Positions 5,150-62,800 of a DNA stretch of 64,000 nt are shown here, piece by piece (positions within the stretch are counted from its first letter, which is position 1; every line of letters starts with the position of its first letter). The notes under the pieces were generated by a model that saw only the letters and a list, made by a program, of their open reading frames with translations, was not told the origin of the DNA and made no database searches. This DNA comes from Nageia nagi. Lineage: Eukaryota > Plantae > Pinophyta. A program made the position numbers and the translations under genes. The stretch lies in contig JBITNC010000001.1 of assembly GCA_050084985.1 (NCBI GenBank), positions 60,698,001-60,762,000 of the forward strand, in the 5' to 3' direction.

Positions 5150-5807
5150 TTCTATTAAAACCTAATGAACAAAAAATATTTTGATTTATTTTGAATATGA
5201 AAATACTTGCAGTTCAAGCATAATAGATAGAGGAAATTAAGGAAGCTACCATGAATTCATGTTAGAGTTCATCGATATTGAAATTGAGTAAAGGAAATTA
5301 AAACTACAAACTATATGACTATCCCAATACTCACTAAAATAAGGGATGAGGGAATAAAATATCGCCAAAATATTAAATATGATTTATGTGAAGAAAGGTC
5401 TATAATGCCTTCTTTAGCAAAATAGTAAGAATCTTCTTGCTAATAAATAATATCAATAGATGAACTTATATTCAATATTTTAATCACCTGTTAACATTGG
5501 CAATAATTTAACTTCAACTATATAAGATATTTTCAATAGTTTCCAAGTGGATAGAATTATATGAATTTTTACAAACTATGGACTATTCTAACTCATGTTA
5601 TCTTTAATGCTTTAAAGAATTAGAAGATGAGAATGGAACCAAGTCTAATTTATAATAAAGAGTAGAAAAAATCCTAAAAAAGTATAATAATATAATACCT
5701 TTAAGACATTTTCCTCTAGGTTCCAAAATTCTAAATTTGACTCCATATCAAATAACACCTTTTGAATACGAGGACATGAAGAGGTAAGTTCATAACTTAT
5801 TAGAAAT
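5150..5807 (+). pseudogene. Ty3/Gypsy pol relic (protease to RT N-terminus), interrupted by Copia T
   Basis: LGSKILNLTPYQITPFEYEDMKR*VHNLLE resembles the Gypsy PGS..PN..PYR..P.E.EE.KRQV.ELLEKG segment. The RT resumes after the insertion. Confidence 0.6.
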
Positions 5808-21492: not shown

Positions 21493-23214
21493 TGAAGGAA
21501 TTGAATAATTCCACAACTAAGATCATTTGTATCTTTTCTAAAAATTAACACTCAAATTACTCTTCAAAAATAACAATCTCTCAAAATAAACAATAATAAG
21601 CAATCTCACAAAGTGACACATAAGAAGTATAGTGGTTCCTCTCTAAGAGAGTATTTCCACTTAAATCTAAATCTATTACTTTTGAAGCTAAAATATCTTG
21701 TATAAAATTTCCATCACTTAGATCTCTAAACTAGTAGCATAATAATGTTTCTACATGTGTGTGTTTTACAATAAGCCTAGCCTTCCTTTTATAGGCTCAA
21801 ATCCTACTTTGGTACACCCTTTTACACAAAAGGAATACCAACATCCATAGTATATCCAAATCCTCAAATTAGGTGAGAATGGTAGGTGGAAGCCTTTTTA
21901 CCCATACCCATTATATATGTCCATACTTCAATTTTAAGAATGTGGAACTACATGCATATGTGGATATACCTCTAATATAAAATATATGGGGATCCATATT
22001 TGCATACACGGATAATTTACGTAATAAATATATTATTTCATATTACAAAATATTTTTCTTCTAACTTAGGTATTTTATATGTTCCTTTGTTTTTAATTAA
22101 TTAGGAACAATACACCTAAGTTATTTATACAATAATGCATTGTAAGTTCGAACACTCCTTCTTAATGTAATATTGGAGTAGAGAGAGAGGAGAAGATAGA
22201 AAGAAAGTGTAAGAGAGCTCTCCTCCATAAGAAATCAAATCAAAGATGAGAACTTGACATCTTGAGAAGTAATAGAATTTAGATTCTAAATAAGGCTTAA
22301 CTACTTAACCATTTGAGTAAATGGTTTACAACAATATAATCATCAAACATAAATGGTTATTATTTACAAGTAGTCATTCAACATTATGTTGACATGATGA
22401 GACTCCATGAGCTTGTATACTTGAAGTAACCTACAAACTTGTAAACTGTAAGCTACAAGAAACTCATAAACAAGATTATTTATATGCATCATACATTCAT
22501 TTCAACATAAGATAAATGAATCAAATAATTTTATACATCAAATGATCACTATAATTCATGCTAAACAAGCCTATAATCACACTATAAATCATCATAAACA
22601 TACTAATAAAACCTATATTCACCTATTGTATAACAAATATATGCTTATCAATATGTACATATCAATTCATTATACTCTCTAAAGTGTATAAACAAGTTAT
22701 TTTCATGTGGATAACTTAGTATAATAGTGCACATAAGGGGATTATATAACAAAATATACTTCTAGAAGTGAAATATAAGAGTTCCTAAGAGTTTGTACTT
22801 TACTCTCTCTTAAGGAAAACTTTACCATCCTAAAATATGCTATGAGTTCATATAACTTCATCTTAAATTATTATTTTTTTACATCCTTTCTGTATACAAG
22901 TTGATATGAAGTTGACATCATTTAAGAATAATTTTCCCCCCTTGAGGGCAACTTCATCTAAAGAAAGGCTTAAATAAATGGAAAAATATGATTAAATTAT
23001 CCATATGTTGATACACATATCATTTAACATGCTTGTCTTAATGTAATTAAGCATCCATTATATTAAATAAATATCATACTTATTTAAGTACATTGATGCA
23101 CATAAGATCCTATAGAAAAGGTCAAAATCCAATTGATTTTACTATTGGGTGTTTAACATATAAACTAATTTAACACCCAATAATTAGATTTCAATTACCA
23201 ATCCTTATTTATAA

Positions 23215-26130: not shown

Positions 26131-28051
26131 TAAAAAATTACAAGTTGATCAAGTTGTTAACTAAATCAAGTAACTATTCAAATTGTTTGATAAACACCAA
26201 AGTAACTTAGCATATTAAATTGAACCAATTTGTGAAACAAATTAACCAAATTGTTCATTGTTGTAATTATAAGGCTTATATAACTTTGTGCAACTAAAAT
26301 AATTGTAAATTATAATTTGAACTATTAGTTGCATTGCAATTTGTAGTTTGTAAGTTAATAACTTGTAGTTTGAAAGTTAGTAACTTATTTGTATATTGTA
26401 TTAGTATCTTGTAATTGCACTTATAAACTTAGTTGTAGGTTAATATAATCTACAATTATTGGTTAGTGCACTTTACCTTAAGTTTTGAGCATAATATAAA
26501 TTGTATTGAATGAGTCATGTTTATGGCCATCAAACTCATTTGCTTGAGCTATGTGATGATTATGAGAAGTATAATAGTATGGTTTATTTGTTATGCAATT
26601 ACTGACTATTTCTTTGACTTGAATTCTTCTTCCCTCTTGTTTTCCTTCTTCCAAAGTTGATCATTCCTTTTCTCAATCACCTTTATTCTCGTAATAGGAT
26701 GGTTTATTTTCCTATGCTTAGAAGACATTATGAGATGATCCTATTTGTAATTATGAAGATAAGGTTTAGAACAACTTTATCAAAAATTAATACCTTTCTT
26801 AAAAGAAAATATTTGTCATCAAGTTGATAAACATATCTAAATCCCATAAGCTTAGTTATGATGACATCATAAGAGGTTGTATTTACCATTTTGCAAAAAA
26901 AAATAATATTAAACTTTTTAATTTTGCAAAAAAATGGTTTGTAATATATTTGATAATTTTTGGCATAGTTAAATATTACAAAAAAATAAAGGTATGCCTT
27001 CAAACTTTGTTAATTTATTAAAACTTTATCTAAATGTATCAACTATTGCAAGGTAAATTTGGTTTTAAAATTTGTAATAATTTGTAAAATTCATATAAAA
27101 CATTGTTGCATTGATAAAAAATATTTGCTTTGCAAAGTAATTTTTAAACTATGTTAAAAAAATTATAAACTTCAAAAAATAATAGGACTTATGCACCATA
27201 CTTCATAAATGTGCATTATCCATATGCATCATACCTCATAAATAGTTTGAAGTGAGCACTCAGTAATATTTTATGAAATACCCATAACACATTATGATAA
27301 TCCATTCCACTACAATGTGGGTTTTAGCCACATGAATTTTTAATAAATGATGAAAGGACATGGTTAAACTTATCATGGGTTCAAATAATGTCCATATCAA
27401 TCCAATTAAACATATTAAAAAATTCTTATTTGTAGACAACTCAGCTACGCTGTAACGGATGTCCACACCTTACTCTCGAGCTCCCATAGTAGCACTCGCT
27501 GGAAGAATACTGGCAGAGGTTGCAGAGTCTAACTTTACACTCAACAATTGCATCTACTTGAAAGTCTCATGAGCCTTTTCAGAAAACCGATTATGCCAAT
27601 ATCCTTAGATTTATGCCATCCATGTAACGGTAGCTGCATCACATATTTTGTAAAGTAGTACATGGGCTTTCTATCTGTAATAGAACTCACAACTAACACA
27701 TTCAATTTGAAACCATTTTTTGCCACTCTTTGATGAATGTTTGCTGGGTGCCACACTTTGGAAAAAAAGCTGGCAAAAGTTACAGTTTTTCACTTCTTCT
27801 TTCTGAAAAGATTTGTATCTCCATTGTTGGCTATGTGAAGCTTCATGTTTGAAGCTCTTTGATTGTAATCTTGCTCCATTGTAAGTTCAGTTAATGCAAT
27901 CTATTATCTTATGTTCCAATATTGTGTAATTATCTAAATTATTCATTTGGTATCAGAGCAAGTTGGGTCTGAGCTGGGTTTGAGAAAGCCTGTGGCTTCT
28001 AGCAATTACAAAAGTTGCTTGTAGTGTTTTGGTTTCTTGTTTGCAAGTATA

Positions 28052-28680
28052 ATGGCCAGGAACACAAGCTCATCCATTCCATTCCAGAGTTTGATGGCAG
28101 TGACTATGGATATTAGAGCATCAAGATACAAACTTTGCTCACTGGAAAAGATTTGTGGGATGTTGTTGATGATGGCTATGTAGAGCCAGCAGATTGGAGC
28201 TCTCTTTCAGTAGATGATAAGAAAGCTATGAAGGAATGTAGGAGCAAGAAATCTCTTGCCTTGTCTCATCTCCAAGTAGATCTTGATAGGAGCATTTTTC
28301 CAAGAATTACAGGCTACAAGATAGCCAAAGAGGCTTGGGCTGTGTTGAAGGCAGGATTCCAAGGGAGTGATCAAGTGAAGGAGGTAAAATTGCAGACTCT
28401 AAGGATAGAATTTGAGAATTTAAAAATGAAGGAGAGTGAAAAAGCTTTAGATTATTGTGTTAGAGTGAAAGAGATTGTGAACAAAATGCTAACTCTTGGA
28501 GAGACCTTGGAGAAGGCCATTGTAATCAAAAAAATTCCGATATCTCTTACCAAGAAGTGGCATCACATTGCTGTGATATTGATGGAGACAAAAGACCTCT
28601 CTCAAATGGAGATAGATTCTCTCATTAGCTGCCTTATGTCTCATGAAGAAATGGTTGATGATGAACCAGTCCAATCTAGT
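28052..28680 (+). pseudogene. Copia C unit 1 gag N-terminus, fused by deletion to the integrase C-terminus
   Basis: ORF 28135-28707 (GKDLWDVVDDG...KLQTLRIEFENLKMKESE), with an upstream TGG>TAG stop. Confidence 0.9.
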
Positions 28681-30956
28681 AAAGATAGCAAACTACATCT
28701 TGAATAGGTGTTCCACTAGTGCGGTTGATGGCAAGACCCCCTATGAGGCTTGGTATGATAAGAAGCCTACTGTCCAGCATTTTAGAGTTTTTGGGTGTTT
28801 GGCATATGCTCATGTGCCAAAGGAGCATAGAAAAAAGTTGGATGCAAAGAGTGAACCATGTGTGTTCATTGGATATAGTGATGAGAGTAAAGCATATAGG
28901 CTTTACAACCCAAAACCAAGAAAACACTTGTCTCCCAAGATGTCATTTTTGAGGAGGGGAAAGTGTATGGACAGTAGCAAAAATGCATTGTAGACATTGG
29001 AGGAGGAGTGACCAGCCATGAAGATACTTCACAAGTAAAGAATGTGCAGCCCAAGAGATCAAATTCTCTTCCAAACCTCCAAGTGGTGCCTCCAAGTCCT
29101 CCATCAAGTCCATCTCAAAGCTCAAAATCCACTCCCAGCTCACCTTCAAGTGGTGGCTCTCCAAATGTGATCCAAGAAGTGATGAAGATCAAGAGAGGTA
29201 AAAGACACTTTCAAAACCATCCTCCTTCTCAAGTTTTAGATCAAAATTTCCATCAAAGATTAACAAGAAGTCAATTTCATGAAATGGAGAAGTTTGTTAA
29301 GCAATTTAGCAATATGGAACTTGATGAGGATCCAAAGGGTGAGATGGTGAACTATGCTTTGTGTGCAGCCAAAAATACTAATATTTCTATTTTTGATCCA
29401 TCTTGTTATGAGGAAGCTTGCACCAAAAATGTGTGGGTGAAGGCTATGCAAGAGGAGCTTCACTCCATAAACAAAAAGGAAACTTGGGAACTTTGTGAGT
29501 TGCCCAAAGGAAAGAGGTGTGTGGGCTCCAAGTGGGTCTACAAGACCAAGTACAATAGTGATGGTACCATAGAGAGACACAAAGAAAGATTGGTTGCTAA
29601 AGGCTTCACACAAAAACATGGTGTAGACTTTGAAGAGACTTTTGCACCGGTTGCAAGGCAAGAAATAGTAAGGTTGCTCCTTTCAATGGCTGCCCAAAAC
29701 CATTGGAGTGTTTACCACATGGATGTGAAGAGTGCATTCTTGAATGGTTACTTGGATGAAGAGGTTTTTGTACAGCAGCCTCAAGGTTTTCAAGTGCAAG
29801 GTAAAGAACATCATGTGTACAAGCTCAAGAAGGCCTTGTATGGTCTTAAGCAAGCTCCAAGAGCTTGGTACACTCGCATAGATGGATACTTTCAGAATTT
29901 TGGACTCATGAGGAGCAAGAATGAGCCAACACTCTACATCAAGAGAGAAGGTAATTAGATTTTTCTTGTTCTCTTTATGTTGATGATTTGATATATATGG
30001 GAAGTGATCCCATCTTGAACAACAAATTTAAGACCAATTTGATGAATGAGTTTGAAATGAAGGATTTGGGCCTTATGAGGTACTTTCTTGGCATGGAGGT
30101 CCACCAATGTCAAGAAGAGTTTTTTGTTTGTCAAAGTAAATATGCAAGGGACATGCTTTCTAAGTATGGTATGATGAATTGTACTGCTGTTCACAATCCT
30201 GTAGCACATGGTGAGTTGCTTTGTAAGGATGATGGTGCTCCAAAAGCAAGTGTGATAGAATTTAGAAGCATAGTTGGCAGCCTTATGTTCCTTTGCAACA
30301 CTAGGCCTGATATACAATTTGCTGTCCCTTTGGTATCTAGATACATGAATGATCCTTCTATTTTGCATTTGAAGGCTGTAAAATGCATTTTGAGGTATGT
30401 CAAAGGTACCATTGGTTATGGTCTTCACTACTCTCATGTTGAAAAGTTTAAGCTTGTTGGTTTTAGTGACAGTGATTGGGGTAGCAATTTGGATGATAGG
30501 AAGTCCACTTCTGGGCAATGTTTCTCACTTAGTTTAGGAATGATAACATGGAGTTCTAAGAAGCAATCTACAGTTGCTCTCTCTTCTTGTGAGGCTGAGT
30601 ATATAGCCCTCACCATAGCTAGTGCACAAGCCTTATGGCTAAGGAAACTACTTGATGAAATTGGTGAGAAACAACATGGACCAACAATTATTTACTGTGA
30701 CAACCAAAGTGCCATTCAGTTGGCACACAATCCCATCCACCAAAATATGTCAAAGCACTTCCAACTCAAGTACCACTTCATTCATGACATGGTGGAGAAG
30801 GACCAAATTGAGCTTCACTATTGCAACACCAAGATCAACTTGGCTGATATTTTCACAAAAGGTGTTATCAAAGCTCAATATGTGATGCTCAAAGACTCCA
30901 TGGTGAGTCCTCTTTACATCAAGGGGGAGAATGTAGACAACTCAGCTACATTGTAA
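28680..30956 (+). pseudogene. Copia C unit 1 pol 3' part: integrase C-terminus, RT, RNase H (frameshifted)
   Basis: ORFs 28643-28993, 29008-29958 (KWVYKTK, HMDVKSAFLNG, ALYGLKQAPRAW) and 29988-30956 (FSDSDW, EAEY, CDNQSAI, LADIFTK). Confidence 0.95.
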
Positions 30957-31551
30957 TGGACATCCACACCTTTCTCTTGAGCTCCCATAGCAGCGCTCAT
31001 TGGAAGAATACTGGTAGAGGTTGCAGAGTCTAACTTTACACTCAATAATTGCATCTACTCGAAAGTCTCATGAGCCTTTTTAGAAAACTGATTATGCCAA
31101 TATCCTTAGATTATTTCCGTCCATGTAACGGTAGCTACATCACATATTTTGTAAAATAGTACATGGGCTTTCTATCTATAATAGAACTCACAACTAACAC
31201 ATTCAATTTGAAACCATTTTCCGCCACTCTTTGATGAATGTTCGCTGGGTGCCACACGTTGGAAAAAAGTTGGCAAAAGTTACAGTTTTTCACTTCTTCT
31301 TTCTGAAAAGATTTGTATCTCCATTGTTGGCTATGTGAAGCTTCATGTTTGAAGCTCTTTGATTGTAATCTTGCTCCATTGTAAGTTTAGTTAATGCAAT
31401 CTATTATCTTATGTTCCAATATTGTGTAATTGTCTAAATTATTCATTTGGTATCAGAGCAAGTTGGGTCTGAGCTGGGTTTGAGAAAGCCTGTGGCTTCT
31501 AGCAATTGAAAAAGTTGCTTGTAGTGTTTTGGTTTCTTGTTTGCAGGCATA

Positions 31552-33680
31552 ATGGCTAGCAACACAAGCTCATCCATTCCCATTCCAGAGTTTGATGGTA
31601 GTGACTATGGATATTGGAGCATCAAGATACAAACTTTGCTCACTGGCAAAGATTTGTGGGATGTTGTTGATGATGGCTATGTAGAGCCAGCAGATTGGAG
31701 CTCTCTTTCAGTTGATGATAAGAAAGCTATGAAGGAATTTAGGAGCAATAACTCTCTTGCCTTGTCTCATCTCCAAGCAACTCTTGATAGGAGCATTTTT
31801 CCAAGAATTACAGGCTGCAAGATAGCCAAAGAGGCTTGGGCTATGTTGAAGGTAGGATTCCAAGGGATGTGATCAAGTGAAGGAGGTAAAATTGCAGACT
31901 CTAAGGATAGAATTTGAGAATTTAAAAATGAAGGAGAGTGAAAAAGCTTCAGATTATTGTGTTAGAGTGAAAGAGATTGTGAACAAAATGCTAACTCTTG
32001 GAGAGACCTTGGAGAAGGCCATTGTAATCAAAAAAATTCTGAGATCTCTTACCAAGAAGTGGCATCACATTGCTGTGATATTGATGGAGACAAAAGACTT
32101 CTCTCAAATGGAGATAGATTCTCTCATTGGCTGCCTTATGTCTCATGAAGAAATGGTTAATGATGAACTAGTCCAATCCAGTAAAGAGGAGAAAGCCTTT
32201 GCTGCAAAAGAAGGTGATTCTAGCTCAAATGGACAAGGTAGAGGCAGAGGTAGAGGCCAGCAAAGAGGGAGAGGTAGAGGTAGAGGAAGAGGAGGCTATT
32301 CCAACACAAGAGGAAGAGGTAGAAGCAATGGTGACAAGAGGAATGCTCAATGTTACTACTGCAACAAGTATGGGCATTATGAGAGGGAGTGTAGAGCAAA
32401 ACAAGATGCAAATGGTGATGGAAAAGTGGCAAATTATGGAGAAGAAGAAGAGTATGGTGAAACTCTCTTTCTTTCCATGGAGGAGACAGCCAATATGGCT
32501 GAAACAAAACAAGAGGAGACTTGGTTGTTGGACTCTGGATGTTCAAACCATATGACCGGTAAGGGGGAGCTACTTTCATCCATGGACCATTCCTACAAGT
32601 CAAGTATCAAGCTTGGCAATAATTCTGCAATTGAGGTGGCTGGTAAAGGCATGCTTGAGGTGCCTACCAAGCATGGGATGAAGAAGATGCACAATGTGTA
32701 TCACACTCCGGATATGGCTCATAGTTTGTTGAGTATTGGGAAAATGTTGGAAAATAACTACAAGCTAGTCTTTGATGAGGGTAAGTGTGAAATTTTTGAT
32801 AAGAACCATGGGCATAAGTTAGTTTCTACTATTAAAATGTCTCCAAATCATTTATTCCCATTGAAACTTGGAGAAAAGGGGTATAATATTCTTGCAAATG
32901 TGGCTGTTAAAGATGAGTCTTGGTTATATGGCATCTTAGATTTGGACATGTAAATTTCAGTAGTTTGAAACTATCTCATGAGCTAGTTCATGGTTTACCT
33001 CTTGTTGAAAATCCAAAATCAGTTTGTGAAGGTTGTGTGTTGGGAAAGCAAACAAGGTAGAAATTTGATCATGGGAAAGCATGGAGGGCCTCATTCCCAC
33101 TACAGTTGGTTCATACTAATTTATGTGGACCAATGCAAAACAAAAGTATTGGTATGAGTTCTTATTTTATCACCTTCATTGATGATTTTAGTAGAATGTG
33201 TTGGGTCTATTTTTTGAAGCATAAAGATGAAGCATTTGAGTTTTTTAAAGAATTCAAAGAGATGGTTGAGAATGAATGTGAACATAAGATTAAATGTGTA
33301 AGGAGTGATAGAGGAGGAGAGTATTCTTCTACTATTTTTTCTGAGTTTTGCAAGCAAAATGGCATCAAAAAATAGTTTACTATAGCCTATACTCCTCAAC
33401 AAAATGGTGTGGCAGAGAGGAAGAATAGAACTCTCATGGAGATGGCAAGATGTTTGATGCAACCCAAAAAATTACATTACATGTATTAGGCTGAAGCAGT
33501 AAAGATAGCAAACTACATCTTGAATAGGTGTTCCACTAGTGTGGTTGATGGCAAGACCCCCTATGAGGCTTGGTATGATAAGAAGCCTACTGTCCGGCAT
33601 TTCAGAGTTTTTGGGTGTTTGGCATATGCTCATGTGCCAAAGGAGCATAGAAAAAAGTTGGATGCAAAGATGTGAACCAT
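31552..33680 (+). pseudogene. Copia C unit 2 gag, zinc knuckle, protease and integrase (truncated)
   Basis: ORFs 31537-31872, 31877-32953 (CYYCNKYGHYEREC, WLLDSGCSNHMTG) and 33106-33375 (FIDDFSR, RSDRGGEY). Confidence 0.95.
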
Positions 33681-33872
33681 TTATATCAATTTATGGTGAA
33701 CCATTGATAAACTGAGTTGTCTACATTCTCCCCTTGATGTCCCTTTAGGGTTTGTATGGCCCTTTGGCGTAGCTGAGTTGTCTACATTCTCCCCTTGATG
33801 CAAAGAGGACTCATTGACCCCATGGTGAGTCCTCTTTGCATAGAAAAAAGTTGGATGCAAAGAGTGAACCAT
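33681..33872. other. Patchwork filler DNA at a deletion junction
   Basis: About eight short segments copied from the Copia C PPT/LTR junction (both orientations), from the Copia C integrase and from the right flank, mostly joined by 2-4 nt microhomologies. Confidence 0.9.
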
Positions 33873-33994: not shown

Positions 33995-34445
33995 TCATCC
34001 CCTTGAGGGTTGGTGGCTTGCATGTCCCTTTAGGGTTTGTATGGCCCCTTTGGCCAACTTGCATGCACCTAGAAGAATTGACCCCCTTCAAGGTGGCTCG
34101 TCCTCCTTTGGATTACATGATATTCTTTAGAATAACTTGATTGCATTTATGGTGGTGATCCCCTTTAGGGAAACTCTCCTATCTTTGAGGTAGTGGCCCT
34201 CTTTAGGGAAGCTCACCCTCCTTTGAGGCAACATCCCCCTTCAAAGGTGGGTCGTAAGCCTTTACAGTGGTGGCTTGCTTCAAGGAGACTCACCTACCTT
34301 TGGGTGGGTGCCCCCTTGTAGGGTGGTCACATCCCCTTTAGGGTACACATACCCCTTAGGCAATACATGGCCCCTTGGGTGGTCTCTATAGTCCCCTTAG
34401 GGCAGCTACTCCCTCTTGGGGTGGGCGACCCCTTTGGGAACCCTA
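33995..34445. repeat. GC-rich cluster of quasi-palindromic CCCTT(T/G)AGGG-type motifs in the leader of element B
   Basis: ccctttaggg at ~34026, 34161 and 34335, plus the variants cccttgaggg, cctctttaggg, cccttgtaggg and ccccttaggg. Confidence 0.65.
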
Positions 34446-34989
34446 CACAATCTACTATTTTTTTTTAAATAATTAAAGATAAAAAATAAATTAAGACATT
34501 ATTTTGTAAAAAAAATATTTTCCCTCTTTTTTGTTATATTTCTATATTAAATACACATTTTTTTAATATTATAACTAAAGAAAATAAATACCCTTTTATG
34601 TAATAAAAAGATTTTTTTCCCTTTTTTAAATTTACAAAATATGGATAATTATCCTTTCAAAATGATAGGATCATTTGCAAATTTTTATAATAGTAAACAT
34701 TTTTGGAGAAAAAATACATGTAAAAAAATTACAAAATGTATAAATATATATATAGATATATTACAAATTTGTACTACTAACATGTGAATAACATAAAATG
34801 TTATATTTTAACACATTACTTTAGCATAAAACATGTTAGTGTAGATCTCAAATTTCAACTTCGAAAATAAGAGATTGAAATGGTATAACCATTGAAGTTT
34901 CCATAAAAATGAAACAAGTTTAGAGGTTAGATATACCTTTAATGACATTTACTAGAAATAAATTATTTAATTTACTTTGTATTAAAGCA

Positions 34990-36400
34990 ATGAGTGCATG
35001 GTAACAAATATTTAAAATTAGGCAAAATTCAACCTTGCCATGAAGGAAATTCATCTAGAATGTAGCCCAATGGTTAAAGTAATGTAGGGAACAAGGATAG
35101 AACAAGACTAGACTCAAAACCTTGTGAGAATGGTAAAGTGTGCTACTTCAGGAGAAACCATTTATATAGGCAACCATAAATAAAATTTTGGAACTAGAAT
35201 TCACTAGGAAATTGGTGAGTATTAATGTCCCTAAAATTATCACTGAAGTAGGCAAAAGTGATTTACAAAATGCCTTAGTCGGTAGGTTTGTAGGAATAAG
35301 GCCCCCAATTGAACTCATTTGAAGCTGGATTTAGGAAAGATGGAGTACCAAAGGGCCCATTTCTCTGATTTTGCTTCCCAATGAATTCTCAATTTTCAAG
35401 TTTCAATTTGAAGAAGATCTATACAAGGTCATAGAATTAGGTCCATGGTTTCTTGGAAAGAAAGGGCTTGTCATCAAGCAATGGGATAAGAGCTTCTTAC
35501 TATAAATAGAAAATTTCAACCTTATACCCACTTGGGTTTCATTTCAGGTTTGCATCCATCTTGCTAGCATTCAAACATTATAGCAAGAGTGGCCAAGGTA
35601 ATTGAAATATTGGTGATAATTGAGAGAGCCACATGATTGAGATAAAAACTCATGGATGCTAGGTTCATTGCAAACATTGACATCACCAAACCCCTACAAA
35701 AAGAAGTCAAAAAAATACTAAAGAAATCAAAGCTTGGATTCAACTGATATTCTATAATAATCTTATGGGATAATGTGGCATATGGAAGAGCTTTGATCAC
35801 TATGCTAAAGACTACCAAAAAAAAGCTAAGGATGATGATAGAAAAAGCCAAACAAATTAGACAATGCAAATAAGATGGTGCTAATGATTGGAAAATGGTG
35901 CAAAAAGGTAAGGGTTGGAAAAGTAGGGTGAACACCAATAGATAAGCAAATAAAAATCCTTGAAAATCTTAGATAAAATCCAAAAGGAAAGAAATACAAC
36001 TTCCAGACCATCTACCGCTAGAAACCCATATGCAATTCTAGGCATATTGGAGGGTATCGATAGGGATAATATTGAATATAACATATACTTGTCTAAGAAA
36101 AAAGTAATGGATATGTAAATCAATAATTAGATAGAAGGGGTGGATGAAGAAGAGGAGATAAGAAGGGTAATCAAAAAAGCTAAAAATGTAGATAGTCAAG
36201 CCATAACCACAATCACACAATAATATAATATAGGAATGGATATACCATCTAGGAACATCTTGAACACCAAGAAAGCACCAAATGTGGGGAAGAACCACCC
36301 AAAAAGACCTTCCTCTAGTTATTTGAGGAATTGATTTACTAAATAAGATATTGATAATGGGAGATAATGCACTCTAGAGCAGAGGGGAGGCCACTTAGCC
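34990..36400 (+). pseudogene. LINE ORF1 relic (DUF4283-like)
   Basis: ALVGRFVGIRPPIELI*SWI*ERW...FKFQFEEDLYKVIELGPWFLGKKGLVIKQW. Confidence 0.8.
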
Positions 36401-36409
36401 TTTGTGACC

Positions 36410-39400
36410 CTTAACGAGGTCCTACCTTGGAACATCAAGGGTTGTAATGCCCTTGGTAAAAAGAGATCCTTTAGTGATATTTGATGTGATAAAAAATAAA
36501 ACATGGTGTTGATACAAGAATCAAAAGCTAAGGAAGATAGTATAATTGACACAAAGAGAAAATTTTATAAGGATGCCAACTTTCAATGGTAGAATTTAGA
36601 TGATAACTCAGGAGGGCTAATGCTGTATGGGATCCAAACATAATGAAGCTGGGGAACTATCATTGTGAAAATTGATTGAGTAGATATATCCACACTTCAA
36701 TAATCAATGTTGAACATAATTTTGAGTTTATCATTACAAACCTATATGCTCCCAACAACTATGTGGAAAGAAGGAAAGTTTTTGGTCACTAACTAAATAT
36801 AGAATATTATTCCTAGATATCCCTTGTATCATTATGGGGGATTTCAATATAATCCTCCATCCATACAAAAATTAGGGGGAGGTAAAGAAAAAGAGAGTGA
36901 TATGGATGATATTAAGAACTTTCTGGACAATAATAGTCTAATTGATCTGGACTTGACAAGTACATATTTCACATGGAATAATATGCAAATGGAAGATGAT
37001 TTGATCCAAACCAAACTTGATAGAGAAGTGTGCTCCCCTTCATGGTTGGAAAAATTCCTTAACTATGCTTTATTGTCTCAAATCAAAATAATTTCAGATC
37101 ACCTCCCATTACTATTGCAAGCTTCTCAATGTATGAAGAAATAAGTGCCTTCAAATTTGAGATAATATGGATCACTCATCCTTAACTAGATGAAAAAATA
37201 GAGGAATGGTGAAACACAAAGATAAATGGGATAAAACTGTTCCAACTTTAGAATAAATTATGCATTGTGAAAGAAACTTTAAACCATTGGAGTAAGCATA
37301 ACTTCAAACATATTGATAGAGAAAAAGAAGAACTAAGAAGAGAACTTTATCATAACAAAACTTTAATAAAAAAATATGGTAGATCTCTTGAAATAGCCAC
37401 TAGAGAAAATATCCTTAGAGAACAATCCCAAGCTATCATGAAGAGAGAAGAAATCTTCTAGAAGCAAAAATTTAGGATATCATGGATTAAAGTAGGGAAC
37501 ATAAATATAAAATTCTTTACACTTTCTACATTAAGGAGAAGGTCTTGAATAGAATCACCATGCTGGAAAAAGAAGATAAGAGTATAACAAGAATGAAGCC
37601 AAAATCAAAGAGATGGCAGTCTCCTTATACATAAACCTCCTCATAAAATTAGTAAAAGAAAACTAAAACACTGCTAGAGAGCTTCATGACAACATCCCCC
37701 CTCTTATCAATGAAGAAGATAATATGAAATTACTAGCCCCCTTTTCTAAAGAGGAGATCATTTCTATAGTATTCATGATGGATAAGGATAAAGCACTAGA
37801 GCCTAATGGTTTTTCTACAAGGTTCTTTCACCATTTTTGGGATATAATTAGGGAAGATGTGGCAAAAGCCATCCAATAATTCCAAAGACATAATACCCTT
37901 CTCAAGAGCTAGAATTTTAATTTCTTGACTCTCATACCAAAAGTTCAAGGAGCAAATAATCTTAAAAACTTTAGGCCTATAGGCCTTTGTAACATAACTT
38001 ACAAAATCATCACTAAGCTGCATGCAAATAGAATGGCTAAAATTATTCCCAAAATCATCTCTATCAAACAAGATGGCTTTGTAAGAGATAGAAAAATATT
38101 TTATGGAATTATCTTGATGCATGAGACCACACACTCCATCAAATCTTCAAAAGAAGAGGCTATGATCATTAAAATTAACATGCAAAAAGCCTATGATAGA
38201 GTTGCATGGAAATTTCTAGATCAAATCTTGGAGAGGTTTGGATTTTAGAAATAGTGGAGAACTTGGGTGAGCAAATGCATTTCTACTACCACTTTCTCTA
38301 TCCTTGTTAATGGTGAAGCAATTAGATTCTTCAATTCCTCTAGAGGTTTAAGGTAAGGGGAATCTTTTTCACCTTACCTATTTATCACTATGGTAGAGGC
38401 TCTTGGTAGATGCCTAAAGAGAGCCAATTAGACTAGTATTATAAGAGGAATTAGACCCTCTCAAAATGACTCTCCCATCACTCATCACCAATTTGTTGAT
38501 GGTACTATCTTAGTTGGCAAAGCAAGTATAGAAGAAGCCAAAGTCATGAAACCCATATTTGAGAAATATGAATTAGCTTTAGACTAGAAAGTTAATTATG
38601 ACAAAACTAACATTTACTTCTTCAACACTCCCCCTTGGAGAAGTACACTAATGTCTCAAATCTTCCAATGTCAAATGGGTACTCTCCCATCCACCAATCT
38701 AGGTATGCCTCTATTTAAAGGCCATTTCTAGAGAAATTTTTGGAACAAAGTAATGGATAGACTAAAAAATAAAATGGTAGGGTGGAAAGGTACCCTAATA
38801 AGTATGTAAGGGAAAATCTAACATGTTAAAGCCTTTCTTCAAAGTATCCCTATGTATATGGCCAACATTTTCAAAATCCCTACATTAGTTGCTGAAAAGA
38901 TTGACAAATATGTAGAAACTTCATTTAGACTAGTACAAAAGAAAAGAAAAGGATGTCCTAGTATATGGTTTGTAGGAAAAAGAGTGAAGGAGGATTGGGA
39001 ATTAGACAAATCAAATTAGTCAATCAAGTAATGTAGATGAAATTAGCATTATGATAGAATGATGGTAGAGAATGGATCAAGGTCTACAAAAATAAATGTC
39101 TTGAAGGGATCAATAGCTTTCTGAACCTATAAAATCCTCCTACAGGCTCATCTTTCTAGAATGGACTAGTAGAAATGAGAGACCCCATTACAAAAAATGT
39201 TGTATGGGAAGTCAATAATGTTTTGGGATGAAAAATGGATTGGCCCCACCTCCCTAGCAGACCAACTAGAATGGACCTCCTTAATACTATGGAAAAATAC
39301 TAAGATTGGGCTTATAATATTTGACTACATATCTCAAAATGAAGAGAACTCTCAATGGTCCATTCCTATGCCCAACAACCCCATGTTTGTAGAATTAAGA

Positions 39401-40325
39401 ACTTAGCTTCTCCAGAGACTAGACAGAATTCCACTATATCCCACTCAAAAATTAAACTATCTATTTTAGGTGGATGAGAAAGGAAAAAAAATATTATTCA
39501 ATAAAAATTAGTTACAACTTCCTTAATCAAAATTGAATGGATAGCAAAAAATGATTATGGGAAAAGTGTCTGGATAAAAGGCTTATCCACAAAATTGCCA
39601 GCTTCCTTTAGGCAATAGTTCTAAGGAAAATCCACACAATGATGTGCTCAAAAGAATAGGAATGAGTTTCCCAAGTAGATGCATTCTATGTAATAATGTT
39701 AAAGAAACAACAAAACACATTTTCCTTTAATGTGAATATGCTAAGAAGGTATGGGTGACATCTCATTCATTAGCTAGTATGGTTGAGAAATAGAGATTGA
39801 AAGACAAACATTAGAGGTACAAATTGATTTCAGAAATGATCCCTCCACATATTTTCTAGGTAATATGGAAGGAATGGAATGAGAAATTATTCAAGGAATG
39901 CAGCCAAAACCTGGCCAAAATGTGGAAATAATACATAAGCTTACTTCAAGAGAATATGGACTACTACATCCAACTAGACCCCACCAATGATGCTGAGTCA
40001 TTCTCCCTCTAATGCCAGATCCTCCTAGAGCCCATCCTTTCCATCTCAAATGCTAAAATAAGGAAATCCCAATCTATTGGATGATATGGACTACCACAAA
40101 TGAAGTAATAGGGGATGATGTGATCATAGGCACATTGCAAATTTTGAATTGCCCCTCCAATATTAATTCCTTAACTTATGTGACTAATAGAAATGAGCCA
40201 AAACATGATGAGTACAAACTTTAAGGTGGAAGTCAGAGAGGTGGAAAACTTCACCTTACTTTAGATATCATCCTTGATCCACTACTTACACCACTTCAAA
40301 AATCCAATTTAGCTCCTCTACATGT
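36410..40325 (+). pseudogene. LINE ORF2 relic (APE endonuclease, RT, zf-RVT)
   Basis: Endonuclease: WNIKG, YFTWNN...KLDR, SDHLP. RT: LIPKVQGANNLKNFRPIGLCNITYKII, KINMQKAYDRV, THHQFVD. zf-RVT: SRCILCNNVKETTKHIF. C-terminal IWKEWN. Confidence 0.92.
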
Positions 40326-40344
40326 AAGTATTGCTACCCCGATC

Positions 40345-41908
40345 ATGGGTAAGAGTTGCATGGGTAAACCAAACAACTTTTGTGAAGTTCAAGGGGATCA
40401 CAATGTATGGGATATAATTTATAAAAAAGGGGTGCAAAGTTATATCATGAATTATCAGGGCCATGAACCTACTTTGGAAGACAAGATGGTAAGCAACTAT
40501 GATAATGGATGGATGATAATTGGAATAGTCCAAGTCCATCTCTCCATGGAAGTAATTATAGAAGATAATGCCTTAATTCTTGAGGGGAGACTATTAAAAC
40601 AAAAATCAAAGGTTAGGCCCAAGGAATTTTAAGCATTTTTTGGCCCTGGGAAATCCCTTATTAAAAAAAGGATTGGAATTGATCATGAAAGGCTCTTGGC
40701 ACTATGGATCACATCTCCAAATGGGTGACTAAATACTTCATGCTGGATGGTAGGTACACTATTATTTTTGGCCCTAACGTGGTTCTTCTATGTCATTTCA
40801 TATGGGGGGAGACATTTTGTATCTATTTCCCTTTCTTTCTTAGGGAATTGATTACGACCTTTGTTAGTTAAGTCAAGAATAGAAAATAAATCCAATTAAG
40901 ACACCTAGGCCTTATCACATTCCTCTATTGGGAAGCCTTCATGGAAACCCTAGGGAAAAAATCAATTTTAGTTAGGTAGTCAAAGGAAGTAGCTCTGGTA
41001 AAGATATCCCAATGAAATCTAGAAAGGTTAAGGAGAGAACCTATAGAAAAGAGCCCCAACGTACTCCAAGTCTAACCAAAAAGAAAAAACCAAATGAGAA
41101 ACATGATAGGAAAAAGGAAAAAATAATAGAGAAGGTTAGATCCCCTAGCAAGCCTAAGAGTAGTCATAAGTTCTTTATGGCACACACCCCTCAAACTAAC
41201 CATTGAATGTTAACTAGATCCCAAAGCTCTAAGGGAAAAAAGGTAAATCCTAAATAATATAGGGATAATGTTATGAATATTCAAGATGAAAGCCAAGTCA
41301 AGGAAACCCCCATGGACCCTACTAAAAAATAGAAAAAAACCCCTCCCTCTTATCCAAAAAAGATTTTTAGACCACCATTTCCATAGGAGGAACATCAAAA
41401 GAGCCATTAGAGCTATAAGAACCTCCATAAAAAATCCCTAAGCCTATCATGGACCCTAAGACATAGGCCATAGAAGATACCCCTAAGAAGAATCATGGGG
41501 GTGACTATGCAAAGCCTGCTACAGATAAGGAACAAAAAGTTTGAGGAATGTGAAGCTATGCCTACCCCTATTGTTAGGTCATAAGCTATACATTCTGATA
41601 ATATGCCTCCTGATATTCCATCACAGACACAAGAACAATCTAGGCAAAGTAAAAATATGGAATAAACTCAACCCAACAAAGAATGAAACCCCTTAAAGAA
41701 GAGAAATGCAGAAGAAAGGCACAACCCTAAAGCAAAAGATAAGACCCCCAAGATTCTTAATATTAAGCCTCTAGCTTGGGTCCTAACATACCATCCCATT
41801 CCCATAGATGATGCCTCAATACTATGATTCAAAGTCCAAACCAGAGTTGAAGTAAAAAAGAAACAAAAGTAGGTTACTCGTAGAAGGAAAGGGGGGAAGA
41901 AATCTTAA
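40345..41908 (+). pseudogene. Putative third ORF of the LINE: structured N-terminal domain plus K/P/E-rich tail
   Basis: ORF 40345-40632 continues through stops and frameshifts into KYFMLDGRYTIIFGPNVVLLCHF (40731), FPFFL and HLGLITFLY (40902), then basic low-complexity sequence ending VTRRRKGGKKS* at 41908. Confidence 0.6.
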
Positions 41909-42836
41909 TTTCTAGCATGTTATAAGTTATGCTCACTCGTAGAATATAGTATGTATTATAGTTTGACATATATTCTAATGAAGTTATGGAATTTTTTTAG
42001 GTACTATCTATCCTCTTTTTGGCTACCACTAAGTATAGCTAGGTAACTATTTTAATTTACTGAAATCATTTTTGTGACCATTTTTGGGGATCTAACCTAA
42101 ACTCCATGTTTTGATAATATAATTTACCTTTTATTATCACCTATAGTGAGGTTTAACTCAAGATGATAAAACTAAAATTTTAAGGAGATGACCACAAGGA
42201 GGCTCTTATACCACATGAAGGAATTGAAGAATTCCACAACCAAGATCAATTGTACAAACTCTAACAAATTAGTAGTCAAATTACTCTTCAAAATAAAAAT
42301 CTCTTGAAAGACACAACAATAAGCAATCTTAAAAAGAAGCACATAATAAGTATAGTGGTTCCTCTCTAAGAGAGTACATCCACTTGAATCTAAATCTATT
42401 AATTCTCAAGAAAAAATCTAAACTAATTGCATAACAATGCTTCTACAAGTGTACGTTTTACAACAAGCCTAGCCTTCCTTTTATAGGCATAAATCCTACT
42501 TTGGTACACCCTTTATACCAACATCCATAGGATATCCACATCCTCACATTAGGTGATAATGGTAGGTGGAAGACTTTTTACCCATACCAATTACACATGC
42601 CCATACTTAAATTTTAAGAATGTGGGACTAAATGCATATGTAGATATGCCCTAATATAAAATAGATGGGGTTCTACATTTGCATATGGATAATCCACATA
42701 ATAAATGGATTATTCCATATTATAAAATATTTTCCTTCTAACTTAGGTATTGTATATGTTACTTTATTTTTAATTAATTAGGAATGATACACCTATGTTA
42801 TTTATACAATAATGCATTATAAGTTCTAATAGAAAT

Positions 42837-44403
42837 ATCATCCTATTGAAGTCATTGATGAAGGTCAAGATGTAAGAAGCTGCCCTAAGAGACTTAGTTT
42901 CAAATGGACCTATCAAATTTGAATGCATAAGCTGAAGAGGTTATGATGCCCTTTTTTCCTTATATTTTTCAAAATTTTGTCTATTCATCTTGCCTAAGAT
43001 GCACTTCAAGACCAATTGTGGGTGATATCGATGATAAACCTTTCACAAGTTCTTGATTTTTTCATATCTTGAGTGCTCTTATGGTTATGGTATCCTAATC
43101 AATGGTGTAGAAGATTTCCCCTATAGTAAATATTTGTAGTAAGGCACATATTTTTTGGCACTTGATCTATAATGTAGAGATCATCTTTCATTGATCCTTT
43201 CACCAAAGTGGCAAGTCCATTTTTAATGCGTTAGGAGTGTGAGTTGAACTTGAATGAGTACACTATCCTTGCAACTTGAATTATGAAAAGAAGGTTCATA
43301 TTGAGTTTAGGAACATAGAGCATATTTTCAAGAACCTTCCCATGTATAAACAAATTCCAAATCCCTTGGAATTTAGGGATAGAATTATCACCTATCACAA
43401 CTACATCCTTTCTATACTTACGAAAATTTTCAAATATATCCTTTTCAAAATACATGTGATTAGTTCACCTAGAGTCAAAAATCCAATCATTCGAGAAAGC
43501 ATGAGACTTGAAGTAAAGACCAAAAATAAAAGCAAATTTATTATTCTTTTTATTTCATTTGAATTTGTTTGATTTTTTAGTTCCTTTGCCACCTTGTTCT
43601 TTCTTTTGCTTGTATCAATATGATTGCTTATGACCATAGATACCACAATTACCATCAAATTTGTCTTTGAATTTGGATTTTCCATACTTCTCTTAACAAT
43701 TCTATTATTTATTTCCACCTTTCTTGAAATCCTTTTTTGAAGCATGGGAATATTTCTTTCAATTGTGGATTTTCTTTTTGAAGTGAGTCTTCATTGGTCC
43801 AAGTTCCATAGGATGCTCCTTAGGAATGGAGATCAACAACTTTTTGTTGAGATTTTCCTCATATTTTAGGAGAACCCTTGAAATATTTTCCATGGCATTG
43901 AGCCTTGTTTCAATAACTATCATGAAGTGAATAATTTTAGAAGAGAGACTTTAAAGGATGATGAACACCATAAACTTATCATTGATCCAATTGCATCCAC
44001 ATCCCACAAGTTGGGTCCTAAGATTAACAATCTTTTTCAAGTATATTGCAACACTTTCATTTTCCTCTTGACATGATTACAATAATTTTTTAAGAATGGT
44101 GAACCTCCTAGAGAATTTGGAGTTGAGGTAGATTTTCTTCAATCTGTACCAAGCTTCTTTTATGGAGTTTAAAGAGGAGATCATGAGGAGAATTTCATTT
44201 AAAACTACATGAAAGATCATAGAGATTGCCAACTCATTCTTTGTGTTGTAAGCCTTAAGTGCCTTCTCATATATTGGATTAACTTGGTTTTCATCTATAG
44301 TTTGTCACATTTTTCATGCTTGGAGTTCTAATTTCATCTTAGGTTCCCAAATACCATAGTTGGAATAGTCTAGGATATGCTTGGATATAAAGGAGTCTCC
44401 CAT
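42837..44403 (-). pseudogene. Copia A gag, protease and integrase N-terminus
   Basis: Start MGDSFISKHILDYSNYGIWEPKMKLEL. Protease WIFDSR...HMY and ENMLYVPKLNMNLL. Integrase YILTFINDF. Confidence 0.85.
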
Positions 44404-57794: not shown

Positions 57795-59810
57795 TATTGG
57801 ATAAACTTCTTAGAGATTTTATTTGGGCATCTAATATGCAAAATCGAGGTTTTCACATAGTGGCATCGGATGTTTGTTGCCTTCCTCATTCAACTAGAGG
57901 AATGGGCATTTTTGATTGCTAGAACCAAGAGTTTGCTCTTTGTTCCAAATGGATAATTAGAGCCATGGAGGATGTTGAGGCCTAGAAGATCCTCATTTGA
58001 CATTGTATTTCTACGGGCCTCCCTATGGCATAAAGTCTTGGAAGGGTCTATACCTTCAAATGATTCTTACTACTCAAGTCCTTATCAAGATCTTTGGTTT
58101 ATTTTTTGCAAAATGTATTTGGAAGGCATGGGGAGGCTTTCAAGCCCTAGCTTCATAGGAATGGGAAGCAGAATTCATCAAGGGCCTCCCTCTCTTCCTT
58201 GAATGTTTGGTGATCTCTTGTTCTTAAATTTTATGGTTTTCCTTTGGCAAGTGTTCAATGGGTCAGAGCCCTTCACTTTCATAGGAAGGGAATCGACTCT
58301 CTTAAGTATTTTTTTGATTTTTAAACCAAGCATTGGTTACCTTGGGAGTAGTTTTGTAAAAAACTTAATTTGTATCAGGATGATAAATCCACTTTTGATG
58401 TTATTCTTGACAAAATCTCTTTTTCCATTTGGAGAAAGTTGGGAAGATATTTTCAGAGGCCTTGGTGGGATGATTGGTATTGGCTTAAGAACATTCATTT
58501 ATAGATATTCAAACCCAAGTTAGGCTACCTTAGGCTATCACCTAATATTCCCATGTTTGAGCGACTAAACAATAGATGTGATCTTGTTTCTACCTAGTTT
58601 AGATGGTGATTAAGGTTTTTTGTAATCTGGTCCCGATGTATTAATCCTAAGAAAAGTTTTTTTGCTTGAAGTTTGTTACATCAAGGTTTACCTATTGGCC
58701 ATAGGTTACAACATTTGGGGGTGGAAAATCCTATTTATGCTTTATGTAGGGAACCTGATAGTTTTTTTCATGTTTTTTGATCATGTTCTAAAGCTTCAAC
58801 TGCTTGGGGTTGGATTTTATCCTTTTTAACCTATTCTTGGTCACTCCTTGCTCTTGGTTTCATGTACTATTAGGGGATCCTTTACAATCTTTTAAATCCT
58901 TAAGGGAATTATGGCATATTTTTTAGCTCAATATTTTATATCATCAATGAAAAGTTATAAATGATATTATTTTTGCAAGACATGAAGCTTCTTCTTTCTT
59001 TTATTTAGCTAGTAAATATGCAATTATCTCTAATGTTAGTTGCAAATAATTATTCAAGTGGAGAAAGCGAATGTGGAGGTTCAACATCAATGAAACTTAC
59101 TTGATTATTAGGAGAATGTACCTTGCTCCATCAGCTAGGTCCCCCTCAAATGATGCCCCTCAATGTCATTCCCCATCATTCTTAGTCCCATGGATGTTCT
59201 TCTTAGACTAGATACTTCTTCAATGGGCATAATTTTGTTGGATTGTTGGACCTTCACAGAGCTATCACTGGTCCTAGCATCCTTTGAATTCTAAGTGAAG
59301 TCATATTATGGATCCCATTTCTCCTCATCCCCAAAGTGGATGGGATGTCCACCCATTGCCTTTTGATCTAATTGGTTGGGGTGATGTGAGCATGTCCTCC
59401 ATGACATGGAAGGATGTTGTTAATACACATTTTATTGAGGAAGATAATAATGAGGATATCAATGATCCAAATGATGATGGATGATGTGAATCAAGCCTTG
59501 GCAACCAAGGCTAGGAGTATCTAGGTGATGTGGAAAACTTTCATCTACCCCAATCTTCTACCTAGGTTATTATCTTTTTTTTTTGTGTTAATGATTACCT
59601 ATCCCATGTTTTCTGGCTACTGTTAACTATTTTGTACTGGCAAGTTTTTTGTGTTTCTTTCTAGCCACCTTATTTCCTAACTCTAGTTAGTTTGAAGGGG
59701 TTATGTTTTCTAGCTATGTTTGATCATGGAATGTGCCTAATTCCACTCGCCCCTTTTTTGTATGAAAGAGATTTTAATTTTATACAAGGTCTTTTTCATC
59801 CAAAAAAAAA
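57795..59810 (+). mobile_element. 5'-truncated L1 LINE (ORF2 C-terminus, zf-RVT, 3' UTR, poly(A))
   Basis: LDKLLRDFIWASNMQNRGFHIVASDVCCLPHSTRGMG and INPKKSFFA*SLLHQGLPIGHRL...LCREPDSFFHVF. It ends ttcatccaaaaaaaaa. Confidence 0.85.
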
Positions 59811-62800
59811 GTTACTATTAATAACCCTTCATGTTATTTCTATATTTAATAAAAAATTTATTATTATTATTATTTATTATTCTTAAATAATTATTTACTA
59901 TTTATCCTTCATTTAGTATTTCATAAAGTTTTATCAATGTTGTTCTAATTAGCTAGATTTGTTAACTTTGTCAATTTTCATAATCCTCCATTTTAGTAAA
60001 TATAACTTCATACTATACCTATGTGATGGAAGTTCAAGGGAGTATTTTTCTATTCTTACTATATTTCATGTCATGTTTTCTCTCCTTTGCAATGAGGAAT
60101 TATATGGTGCATATCATCACACTTACAAATAGGGTGACTCTTGATACTTAAAAATAGATGCAATTATATATTTTAGATGTCTTAAAAATAAATGATGATG
60201 TATATACTTTACTTTGATATTATTAATGATGCATTATCAAATTAAGTTGAATTTAATATTATATCATGTTATTTTGTTCTTTTGTGGTATAAGGATTAAG
60301 GCATTGAGCAAGTTAACTGTGGCTAGGAGGAAATTTATCTATATAAGAAGATGTACATATGGGAAGACTATTCATATCTTTGGTATTTATAGCTCTCATA
60401 CAAACTTTTCATAATCAACATCTTTAGATACCACTTATTAAGATTTGAGATTTAGCATCACACAAGTTATTTTATCAATCTTTCACTTTGTATGCTAAAA
60501 TAGGCTTATCTTGATAGGTTTATACACATTTGAGCTTTGTTTGAGAATTTTCTCTAGAGATTTTGAAGCATGAGCATTTGAATCAATACCTAGTATTGGT
60601 GCTTGGGGATTGAATCCATTTCTTCTCAAATCTCACCAATTGAGCATCGAAGACCTACTAAGTTGATTTCTACCATCTAATCTTTTTCTTAGGTAAGAAT
60701 GATAAGTATTGTATATCTCATTTCATCTTGATAGGCCTAGATTTGATCTAATAATTAAAATACTTTTTCATGTTATATATTCTATTATTATTTTTAATTA
60801 TTATAAATTGATTGAATGCTACTCCACTTCCATATCTTTTATTATTATTGAGTACTTTCTAGGCTTGTAAAATATTTAATTATGATATATTTCTAAGTGT
60901 CAAAAACTTCATTGACAAAATGTTAATATCTGATTTCTAGGAATGAATTTTATGAGTAGAGGAAATTATGTTTGAAAATTTTTAGATTGATTGTATTTCT
61001 TGTGAAAAATGAACCTTTTCATAATTTCCTTTATTTATTAAAATTTTCAATCTTGTTTAGCTTGCCTTATTTTCAACCATCTTCTATGTTAGTTGCAAAG
61101 CATTTGAATCTCTCTCCCTCTATATATATATATATATATTTATTTATTTATATTTATATATATTCTATAAGGAAACTATAGTTGGAGACATGAAACAAGG
61201 GATTGATGGTGGATTTGAGAAAATGGATAGGTAAAAATAGTCTCTCTCCATTAATTTTCTCAAGCTACAGAACTAAAAGTGATAGAAATAAGAGGGCAAA
61301 TTATAGGTAATATTAGAACTTAAAAGATAACCAAAATTACATCCTTTTGGAAGAGATGGGATTCTTATAAAATTATTTTGGGAGGATGGTTCTTGATTGA
61401 CTAATTTAGTAATAAGGGAATTTTGATTGTTTAGGTTCTTACTTATATATAGGAATACAAGAAGTACACAAAATATAAAACAAGAGAAAAGAAAAAAATA
61501 GATATAAATCAAAATTAAAGAGTAACATGGGTCTTTATATTAATATAATATAATATAAGTATGATAAATATATATTTATAATAATAATTATGACATAAGC
61601 CAACCGACATCATTTTCACATACATGTATGTCCTTTATACATTTTTAAACTTTGGCATACATACACTCCAATCTTCCATTCTTGAATCCTTTAATTTTGT
61701 TTCTTCATCTAATAGGGATGATAATTTATCTTGAAGGGAATGATCTTTCTTAATGATTTGCATATATTTCTTGATTAACTAATTACTTAGTAGGCCTCAC
61801 TAATTGCTAAGGTCTAGAGCATATTACTAATCTCTATATGCCTCCAATATTCAATGTGGATTCTATTATTATTTTAACTCTCTCTTTCTAACATCCTCCC
61901 CAACTTAAGGCAAGAGCCTTATTGTTGAGCCTCCTTTTAATAACTTTTCCTTTATTGAGATTTACCTATTTTGGAAATCTACACAAGTCCATTCTTGGTT
62001 TTATCTTCTTATTCTAGCCATTAGTTCAACTTTGTATCAAGATGATAAATCCACTTTTGATGTTATTCTTGACAAAATCTCTTTTTCCATTTGGAGAATG
62101 TTGGGAAGATATTTTCAGAGGCATTGGTGGGATGATTGGTATTGGCTTAAGAACATTCATTTATAGATATTCAAACCCAAGTTAGGCTACCTTTGGCTAT
62201 CACCTAATATTCCCATGTTTGAGCGACTAAACAATAGATTTGATCTTATTTCTACCTAGTTTAGATGGTGATTAAGGTTTTTTGTAATCTAGGGTCGATG
62301 TATTAATCCTGAGAAAAGTTCTTTTGCTTGAAGTTTGTTACATCAAGGTTTACCTATTGGCCATAGGTTATAACATTTGGGGGTGGAAAATCCTATTTAT
62401 GCTTTATGTAGGGAACCTTATAGTTTTTTCCATGTTTTTTGACCATGTTCTAAAGCTTTAGCTACTTGGGGTTGGATTTTATCCTTTTTAACCTATTCTT
62501 GGTCACTCCTTGCTCTTGGTTTCATGTACTATTAGGGGATCCTTTACAATCTTTTAAACCCTTGAGGGAATTATGGCATATTTTTTAGCTCAATATTTTA
62601 TATCATCTATGAAAAGTTAGAAATGATATTATTTTTGCAAGACATGAAGCTTCTTCTTTCTTTTATTTAGCTAGTAAATATGCAATTTTCTCTAATGCTA
62701 GTTGCAAATAATTATTCAAGTGGAGAAAGTGAATGTGGAGGTTCAACATCTATGAAACTTACTTGATTATTAGGAGAATGTACCTTGCTCCATCAATTGG

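Follow-up and report, generated by a model that had tools for sequence, protein, structure and literature searches.

This locus raises the question of whether a plant L1 retrotransposon carries a third gene downstream of its reverse transcriptase ORF and, if so, where that gene came from and what it might do. The DNA analysed (the window) is a single stretch of 64 kb, and its plus strand carries, at about 35.3 to 41.9 kb, an L1 that is decayed and nearly full-length. Plant L1 elements are described in passages of PMC9033089 and PMC5203782 as two-ORF elements in which RNase H is optional. The element in the window departs from this canonical plan, as a third constrained ORF, designated ORF3, is present in another frame. 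The third-ORF architecture and its constraint are held with high confidence.

The L1 element and its third reading frame

All features of the L1 given here lie on the plus strand. ORF1 (35281..36400, ends approximate) is decayed and has a DUF4283 domain near 35302-35505 (Pfam E 1.1e-9), and no zinc-knuckle match was obtained in the ORF1 region 35500-36400. A putative, frameshifted endonuclease of the apurinic type in ORF2 (36419..37120) is suggested by motifs read directly, in the order WNIKG, QESK, NLYAPN, GDFN, FTWNN, KLDR and SDHLP; Pfam Exo_endo_phos on this region gave E values of 0.019-0.18, which fall short of the cut-off, and the PDB gave no match. The reverse transcriptase (RT; 37913..38620) was matched by RVT_1 at E 7.6e-14 and 7.1e-9. 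Among solved structures the human L1 ORF2p was closest to it (E 4e-20 to 2e-19), with R2 at 7e-9 or weaker, and the best five of ten PDB matches were L1 ORF2p-type chains. The C-terminus of ORF2 (39626..40084) contains a zf-RVT domain at 39626-39754 (E 1e-10) and the motif IWKEWN at 39863-39880; constraint continues until 40033, and the first stop after the constrained end is a TGA at 40082-40084. ORF2 has decayed to the extent of some 12 frameshifts in 3,550 nt.

The first-pass annotation had described ORF2 as being without RNase H, and RVT_3 gave no match at E ≤ 1 in six frames of window positions 39800-42100, where a decayed trace is possible, or in three frames of positions 9500-10475 of L001, the second copy described below. 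Just past the conserved end of ORF2, the ORF2 frame of L001 (9726-9800) reads LDG..NP......G..I....N.GE. This pattern faintly resembles the start of a plant L1 RNase H; it is not kept in the window and has no Pfam match. The element is like the plant L1 clade in its DUF4283 ORF1, its endonuclease motifs, its RT closest to L1 ORF2p and its zf-RVT domain, and unlike that clade in having no RNase H match and in having a selected third sense ORF downstream of ORF2.

ORF3 occupies 40345-41908 in the sense direction and comprises about 520 codons with 14 premature stops (1 + 2 + 11) and two frameshifts, distributed over three frames. The first frame (VWDIIYKKGVQ...LEG) runs from an ATG at 40345 to about 40700, and the second (KYFMLDGRY...HLGLITFLY) from about 40710 to 40940. 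The N-terminal domain of about 200 residues (40345..40940), with a Met-Gly start and a frameshift near 40696, is the part for which homologues and pN/pS values were obtained. The tail (40976..41908) consists of 310 codons in one frame with 11 stops, is rich in K, P, S and R (K 17%, P 10%) and predicted to be disordered, and has 22% hydrophobic residues versus 42% in the domain. An NLS-like RRRKGGKKS, read by eye, is located at 41879-41905 and is followed by the stop TAA at 41906-41908. The decayed coding segment of about 1.6 kb with its own ATG that the first-pass annotation had reported was thus recovered in place, with all of the motifs quoted for it.

Between 40081 and 40725 there are 2 stops in 215 codons; the other frames have 21 and 22, shuffled sequences average 16.1, and none of 3,000 shuffles was as low. 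When frameshifts were allowed and dinucleotide shuffles were used, ORF3 as a whole gave z = -3.0 (150 shuffles), and the tail alone z = -1.5 (P = 0.06; P 0.017 with base shuffles), so that the openness of the tail is borderline. Stops are scarce on the antisense strand of the tail too (z -3.1); as ORF1 behaves likewise (z -2.5), antisense coding was rejected and the effect was taken as a shadow of the K/E-rich coding on the sense strand. No second ORF3-like segment was found within the 64-kb window.

A T-rich stretch, likely the 3′ UTR (41909..42215), precedes an unrelated LTR-like repeat starting at 42216, and this repeat copy, about 300 nt past the ORF3 stop, bounds the 3′ end of the LINE. 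The repeat starts with TG, is 614-660 nt long and is present at 42216-42829 and 21493-22152, the two copies being 81% identical. Candidate target site duplications (TSDs) of the element are only 11-13 nt long and imperfect, in an AT-rich decayed region, and there is no clear poly(A). CpG is nearly absent (observed/expected 0.01-0.09), as is to be expected where methylation has driven decay in a plant genome over a long time; the host may be a land plant with a large genome, such as a gymnosperm. Rfam gave no match in 34000-43000.

A second copy, selection and the ORF2-ORF3 junction

A phmmer search against 1.84 billion representatives gave 15 matches, of which 14 are ORF3-family fragments from Logan, ENA and JGI contigs, in clusters none of which carries a name; the other (P0013), an unrelated haloarchaeal repeat protein, was dropped. 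Pairwise identity within the family is 14-62% (median 40%; 65 pairs sharing at least 40 columns). Met-Gly is present at the start of all nine sequences that cover it (8/8 alignment rows and P0027). The first frameshift of the window is crossed in a single frame by L001, P0009 and P0027, and the first two window pieces are therefore one ORF. A contig of 2,331 nt carries both P0009 and P0010, which may represent the spacer and the ORF3 part of a further copy. Word-based protein searches for longer homologues were negative with P0001 (0 of 888 candidates) and A11 (0 of 7,182), and a search near A1 gave 5 of 672, all known before. At least one locus, L001, was confirmed among the 593 pattern matches listed from a metagenome scan. 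Locus scans of genome_contigs gave 0 of 62 and 0 of 230, and scans of viral_contigs gave 0 of 71 and, separately, no pattern matches; a single viral_contigs match (L002, 1 of 67) was rejected as an off-frame phage match.

In L001 the final ~900 nt of an L1 ORF2 are succeeded by the spacer and by ORF3, of which about 150 codons are present before the contig ends. L001 is collinear with the window from 39145 to 40790 at about 56-68% nucleotide identity in coding blocks, and its upstream flank, a gypsy element, differs. The DNA comparison of ORF2-ORF3 is thus one of two copies, the window and L001. The tail and NLS are seen in one decayed copy because L001 ends at the window equivalent of about 40790, and none of the homologues covers the tail.

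Over 121 gap-free codons (40345-40707) the differences between the two copies at codon positions 1, 2 and 3 are 52, 37 and 70 (Fisher p 3e-5), and the pN/pS of ORF3 is 0.49 (95% CI 0.37-0.63), where the wrong frames give 0.74 and 1.26. The corresponding value for ORF2 is 0.38 (three blocks) and for the spacer about 1. A duplicated or transduced segment decaying neutrally is expected to give a pN/pS of about 1; that of ORF3 is well below this, so both subfamilies diverged while active, each carrying ORF3. With a pS of 0.73 the synonymous sites are close to saturation, and the ORF2-ORF3 link therefore outlived a long subfamily divergence. Protein-level constraint on ORF3 starts at Met-Gly, in a frame that differs from that of ORF2 in both copies. 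These results bear out two points of the first-pass annotation: the segment, found at the same place in L001, is a family feature and not a one-off transduction, and the dN/dS comparison it had proposed gives, for two copies, a ratio well below 1.

The spacer (40081..40344) starts at an ATGA that overlaps the ORF2 stop and is nearly free of stops in the ORF3 frame, with 1 stop in 88 codons in the window and 2 in 85 in L001 (P 0.014 and 0.039); its pN/pS is 0.95-1.08 in all three frames, which indicates no amino-acid constraint. Relative to ORF2, ORF3 is shifted to the -1 frame in the window and in L001 alike, across a gap-free stretch of 56 nt. In each copy the motif ATGAYATGG stands 56 nt past the same ORF2 codon, overlaps an ORF2 stop and shares its frame with the Met-Gly, which comes 88 codons later in the window and 85 in L001. 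The ORF2 frame of L001 has a further stop 8 codons before this one. Coupling by AUGA stop-restart is known, and occurs in the LINE SART1 as UAAUG (PMC5972666). The junction is like the stop-starts of SART1 and caliciviruses (UAAUG, AUGA) in that the ATGA overlaps the ORF2 stop at the same offset in two copies and in the ORF3 frame, and unlike them in lacking a downstream structure signal, in the earlier L001 stop and in the 85-88 unconstrained codons that follow. Stop-restart is a fair lead, not more. As a route to ORF3 expression, an internal promoter or a spliced RNA starting at Met-Gly has an even chance, AUGA stop-restart with an unconstrained N-terminal leader is a weaker candidate, and some other means is improbable.

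Probable kinship of ORF3 with gypsy accessory ORFs

Pfam gave no family match to ORF3 when window frames, alignment members and fragments were used, and with short decayed fragments as inputs none of the 15 alignment members, nor P0027 or P0002, matched PF20167, Athila ORF-1 or PMD at E ≤ 10. No matching cluster for ORF3 was found in the ESM Atlas, and PDB sequence searches with ORF3 were blank or returned noise. Two AlphaFold2 models of ORF3 are of low confidence (pLDDT 51 and 50) and share nothing but helices, a beta-hairpin spanning residues 56-65, and a helix. With these low-confidence models Foldseek gave no match at E ≤ 0.001 against BFVD and PDB, and the best VIA-align Z values (3.0 and 6.4) were to generic helices.

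The upstream part of L001 is a Ty3/gypsy element with RT, RNase H and integrase by Pfam, and about 0.5 kb past the integrase there is a broken sense ORF (~4863-5430, in three frames), designated the gypsy accessory ORF (aORF). An unbiased six-frame hmmsearch of 8.7 kb of L001 with the ORF3 profile detected this aORF at a domain E of 0.0035; profiles of the N-terminal half of ORF3 alone found nothing in the same 8.7 kb. Post hoc comparisons of segments of ORF3 and the gypsy aORF gave E 0.045 (gap-free, Met aligned with Met) and 0.0009, and hhalign, with segments picked after viewing, gave probabilities of 1% and 23%; identity between the two is 15-23%. Scored with averaged BLOSUM values, a frameshift-aware scan did not reach significance (p ~0.1). 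With HMM emissions the frameshift-aware scan gave 37.9 bits for the whole domain versus 27.4 for the best control (Gumbel p 2e-4; local 1e-3), and none of the 170 controls (150 shuffles and 20 window tiles) was as good. The Met-to-YF spacing is 128.7 versus 129.7 codons in the ORF3/gypsy aORF comparison, and Pfam gave no match to pieces of the gypsy aORF. On this sequence evidence the N-terminal ~200 residues of ORF3 are probably homologous, distantly, to the gypsy aORF. The first-pass annotation had likened the motifs of ORF3 to accessory ORFs of LTR elements; the distant match to the gypsy aORF in L001 speaks for such a link without placing ORF3 in PF20167 ("putative plant transposon protein").

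Decayed sense coding past the gypsy integrase in L001 (~4863-7200) consists of the ORF3-like domain and then a K/E/P-rich stretch, past which a heptad-looking helical region (~5950-7150) has no Pfam match. The most distant family fragments, P0016, P0019 and P0027, could derive from LTR elements.

Sections of the literature on gypsy elements describe comparable proteins. The 3′ aORF of sunflower Athila encodes 487 aa with an internal PF20167 domain and a predicted NLS, RGGKRKL (PMC11728184), the protein of the Grande aORF is located in the nucleus (PMC7264820), and PMD, Transposase_28 and Athila ORF-1 occur as lineage-specific domains in eORFs (PMC6317226, PMC11963269, PMC7156037). ORF3 is like the 3′ aORFs of non-chromovirus Ty3/gypsy elements, as portrayed in parts of PMC11728184 and PMC6317226, in its location 3′ of the replication ORF, its length of about 500 aa, and its predicted build of a folded domain, a low-complexity part and an NLS-like motif. 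It is unlike them in being carried by a non-LTR element and in having no match to the four Pfam families compared (Athila ORF-1 PF03078, Transposase_32 PF20167, PMD PF10536 and TRP28 PF04195).

Alternative readings and proposed role

The segment might also be read as a 3′ transduction that happened once, as a nested insertion or as a 3′ UTR without coding function. This reading would be consistent with the heavy decay, with the lack of a clear element TSD or poly(A), and with a tail that is present in one copy only. The identical junction in an independent, synonymously near-saturated copy, the codon-structured divergence and the lack of a convincing TSD around the segment argue against it; it is largely refuted for 40345-40790, survives only beyond about 40790, and is very improbable overall. 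ORF3 might instead be a long C-terminal extension of ORF2 that replaces RNase H, read in frame or through a programmed -1 frameshift, and serves in target-site or chromatin tethering. The segment does occupy the position of the plant L1 RNase H (as placed in a passage of PMC5203782), few stops interrupt the ORF3 frame between the ORF2 end and Met-Gly in either copy, and P0010, P0014 and P0016 are open upstream too, although P0010 and P0014 came from a search in that frame. Against the extension stand the same -1 offset across the gap-free 56 nt in both copies, a spacer free of amino-acid constraint, and an invariant Met-Gly that aligns with the gypsy aORF Met. Moreover, no in-frame slippery heptamer was seen by eye, and the RNA structure of the spacer is unremarkable (z -0.6 and +0.8). 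A separate ORF starting at Met-Gly is favoured; fusion to ORF2 would call for a programmed frameshift or for the same decay shift in both copies, and the latter, as estimated from the frameshift load of ORF2, is an event of a few percent. The extension is considered unlikely.

If ORF3 is a real constrained gene, it might act inside the L1 ribonucleoprotein as a chaperone, as a scaffold of the RNP or in insertion targeting. Such a role would suit the basic, disordered tail, the cis-linkage that survived long divergence, and the DNA binding predicted for the aORF domain TRP28 in a portion of PMC11963269. It is opposed by the presence of a DUF4283 ORF1, which is normally RNA-binding, and by the gypsy aORF kinship, which would argue for a function independent of replication; it is judged unlikely, if slightly less so than the extension. 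LTR elements, with their particle and integrase, and L1 elements, with target-primed reverse transcription, have no common replication machinery. A gene of use to both would most likely act on what the two classes have in common, namely transcription, silencing and RNA export, and a host-facing role is therefore preferred.

The proposed course of events is that an L1 lineage took over from a Ty3/gypsy retrotransposon the accessory ORF that follows the integrase and, under purifying selection, retained this ORF as a separately framed third sense ORF beside its ORF2. A gypsy-aORF origin of ORF3 is considered likely; the direction of capture, from LTR element to LINE, is suggested because aORFs are common in LTR elements and, to our knowledge, have not been reported for L1. 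The product would be a protein of about 520 residues, made up of a folded domain of about 200 residues and a tail that is basic and disordered, with an NLS at the C-terminus. It would be nuclear and would help the element against host silencing or in RNA handling, not in DNA copying. Judged from sequence, this nuclear, host-facing role is somewhat better than an even proposition; within it, counter-silencing or transcriptional activation would take about two thirds and RNA export or RNP import one third. By analogy, the published aORF proteins (the 487-aa product of Athila and the nuclear protein of Grande) would fit the role. The reading as a whole, in which an L1 lineage kept a captured LTR aORF as a third cistron encoding a nuclear helper, is moderately probable. 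The fully joined version, a captured gypsy gene in the RNase H slot, expressed by AUGA stop-restart and acting as a nuclear anti-silencing factor of both retrotransposon classes, is doubtful; if true, plant genomes with heavy methylation would contain a counter-defence gene that works across retrotransposon classes.

The third-ORF L1 is a real feature and a new L1 variant; no plant L1 with a third ORF downstream was found in the literature searched, Repbase lying outside its scope. Primate L1 ORF0 is an antisense ORF of the 5′ UTR, and plant accessory ORFs are usually treated as a feature of LTR elements. Additional ORFs are described, in passages of the sources named, for rotifers, in which ORF3s are common to LTR and Athena elements (PMC5408684), for an insect R1 LINE with a viral helicase (PMC6338049) and for primate L1 with its ORF0 (PMC5203782), and Dictyostelium TREs are described as having two ORFs (PMC5633606). 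The present case is like those of rotifers, the R1 helicase and ORF0 in that accessory coding modules move between retroelement classes. It is unlike the R1 helicase, which is fused to ORF2, and ORF0, which lies in the 5′ UTR, because ORF3 is separate, sense and 3′, and the rotifer cases are LTR and Penelope-like elements, not L1. If an L1 lineage has kept a gene of this kind under selection, coding modules have been exchanged between LTR and non-LTR elements. The possible functions of aORFs are narrowed because the function must serve two elements with different replication machinery, and the question of aORF function becomes testable in a second, simpler context.

Other repeats occur elsewhere in the window. 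Two Ty1/copia-like units at 27431-33700, arranged head to tail about 3.5 kb apart, are 92-98% identical over matched blocks, hold long open frames (29955-30956 and 31856-32953) and are much younger than the LINE. At 58369-60102 and 62031-63760 there is a recent tandem duplication (period about 3.66 kb), whose copies are 96-99% identical.
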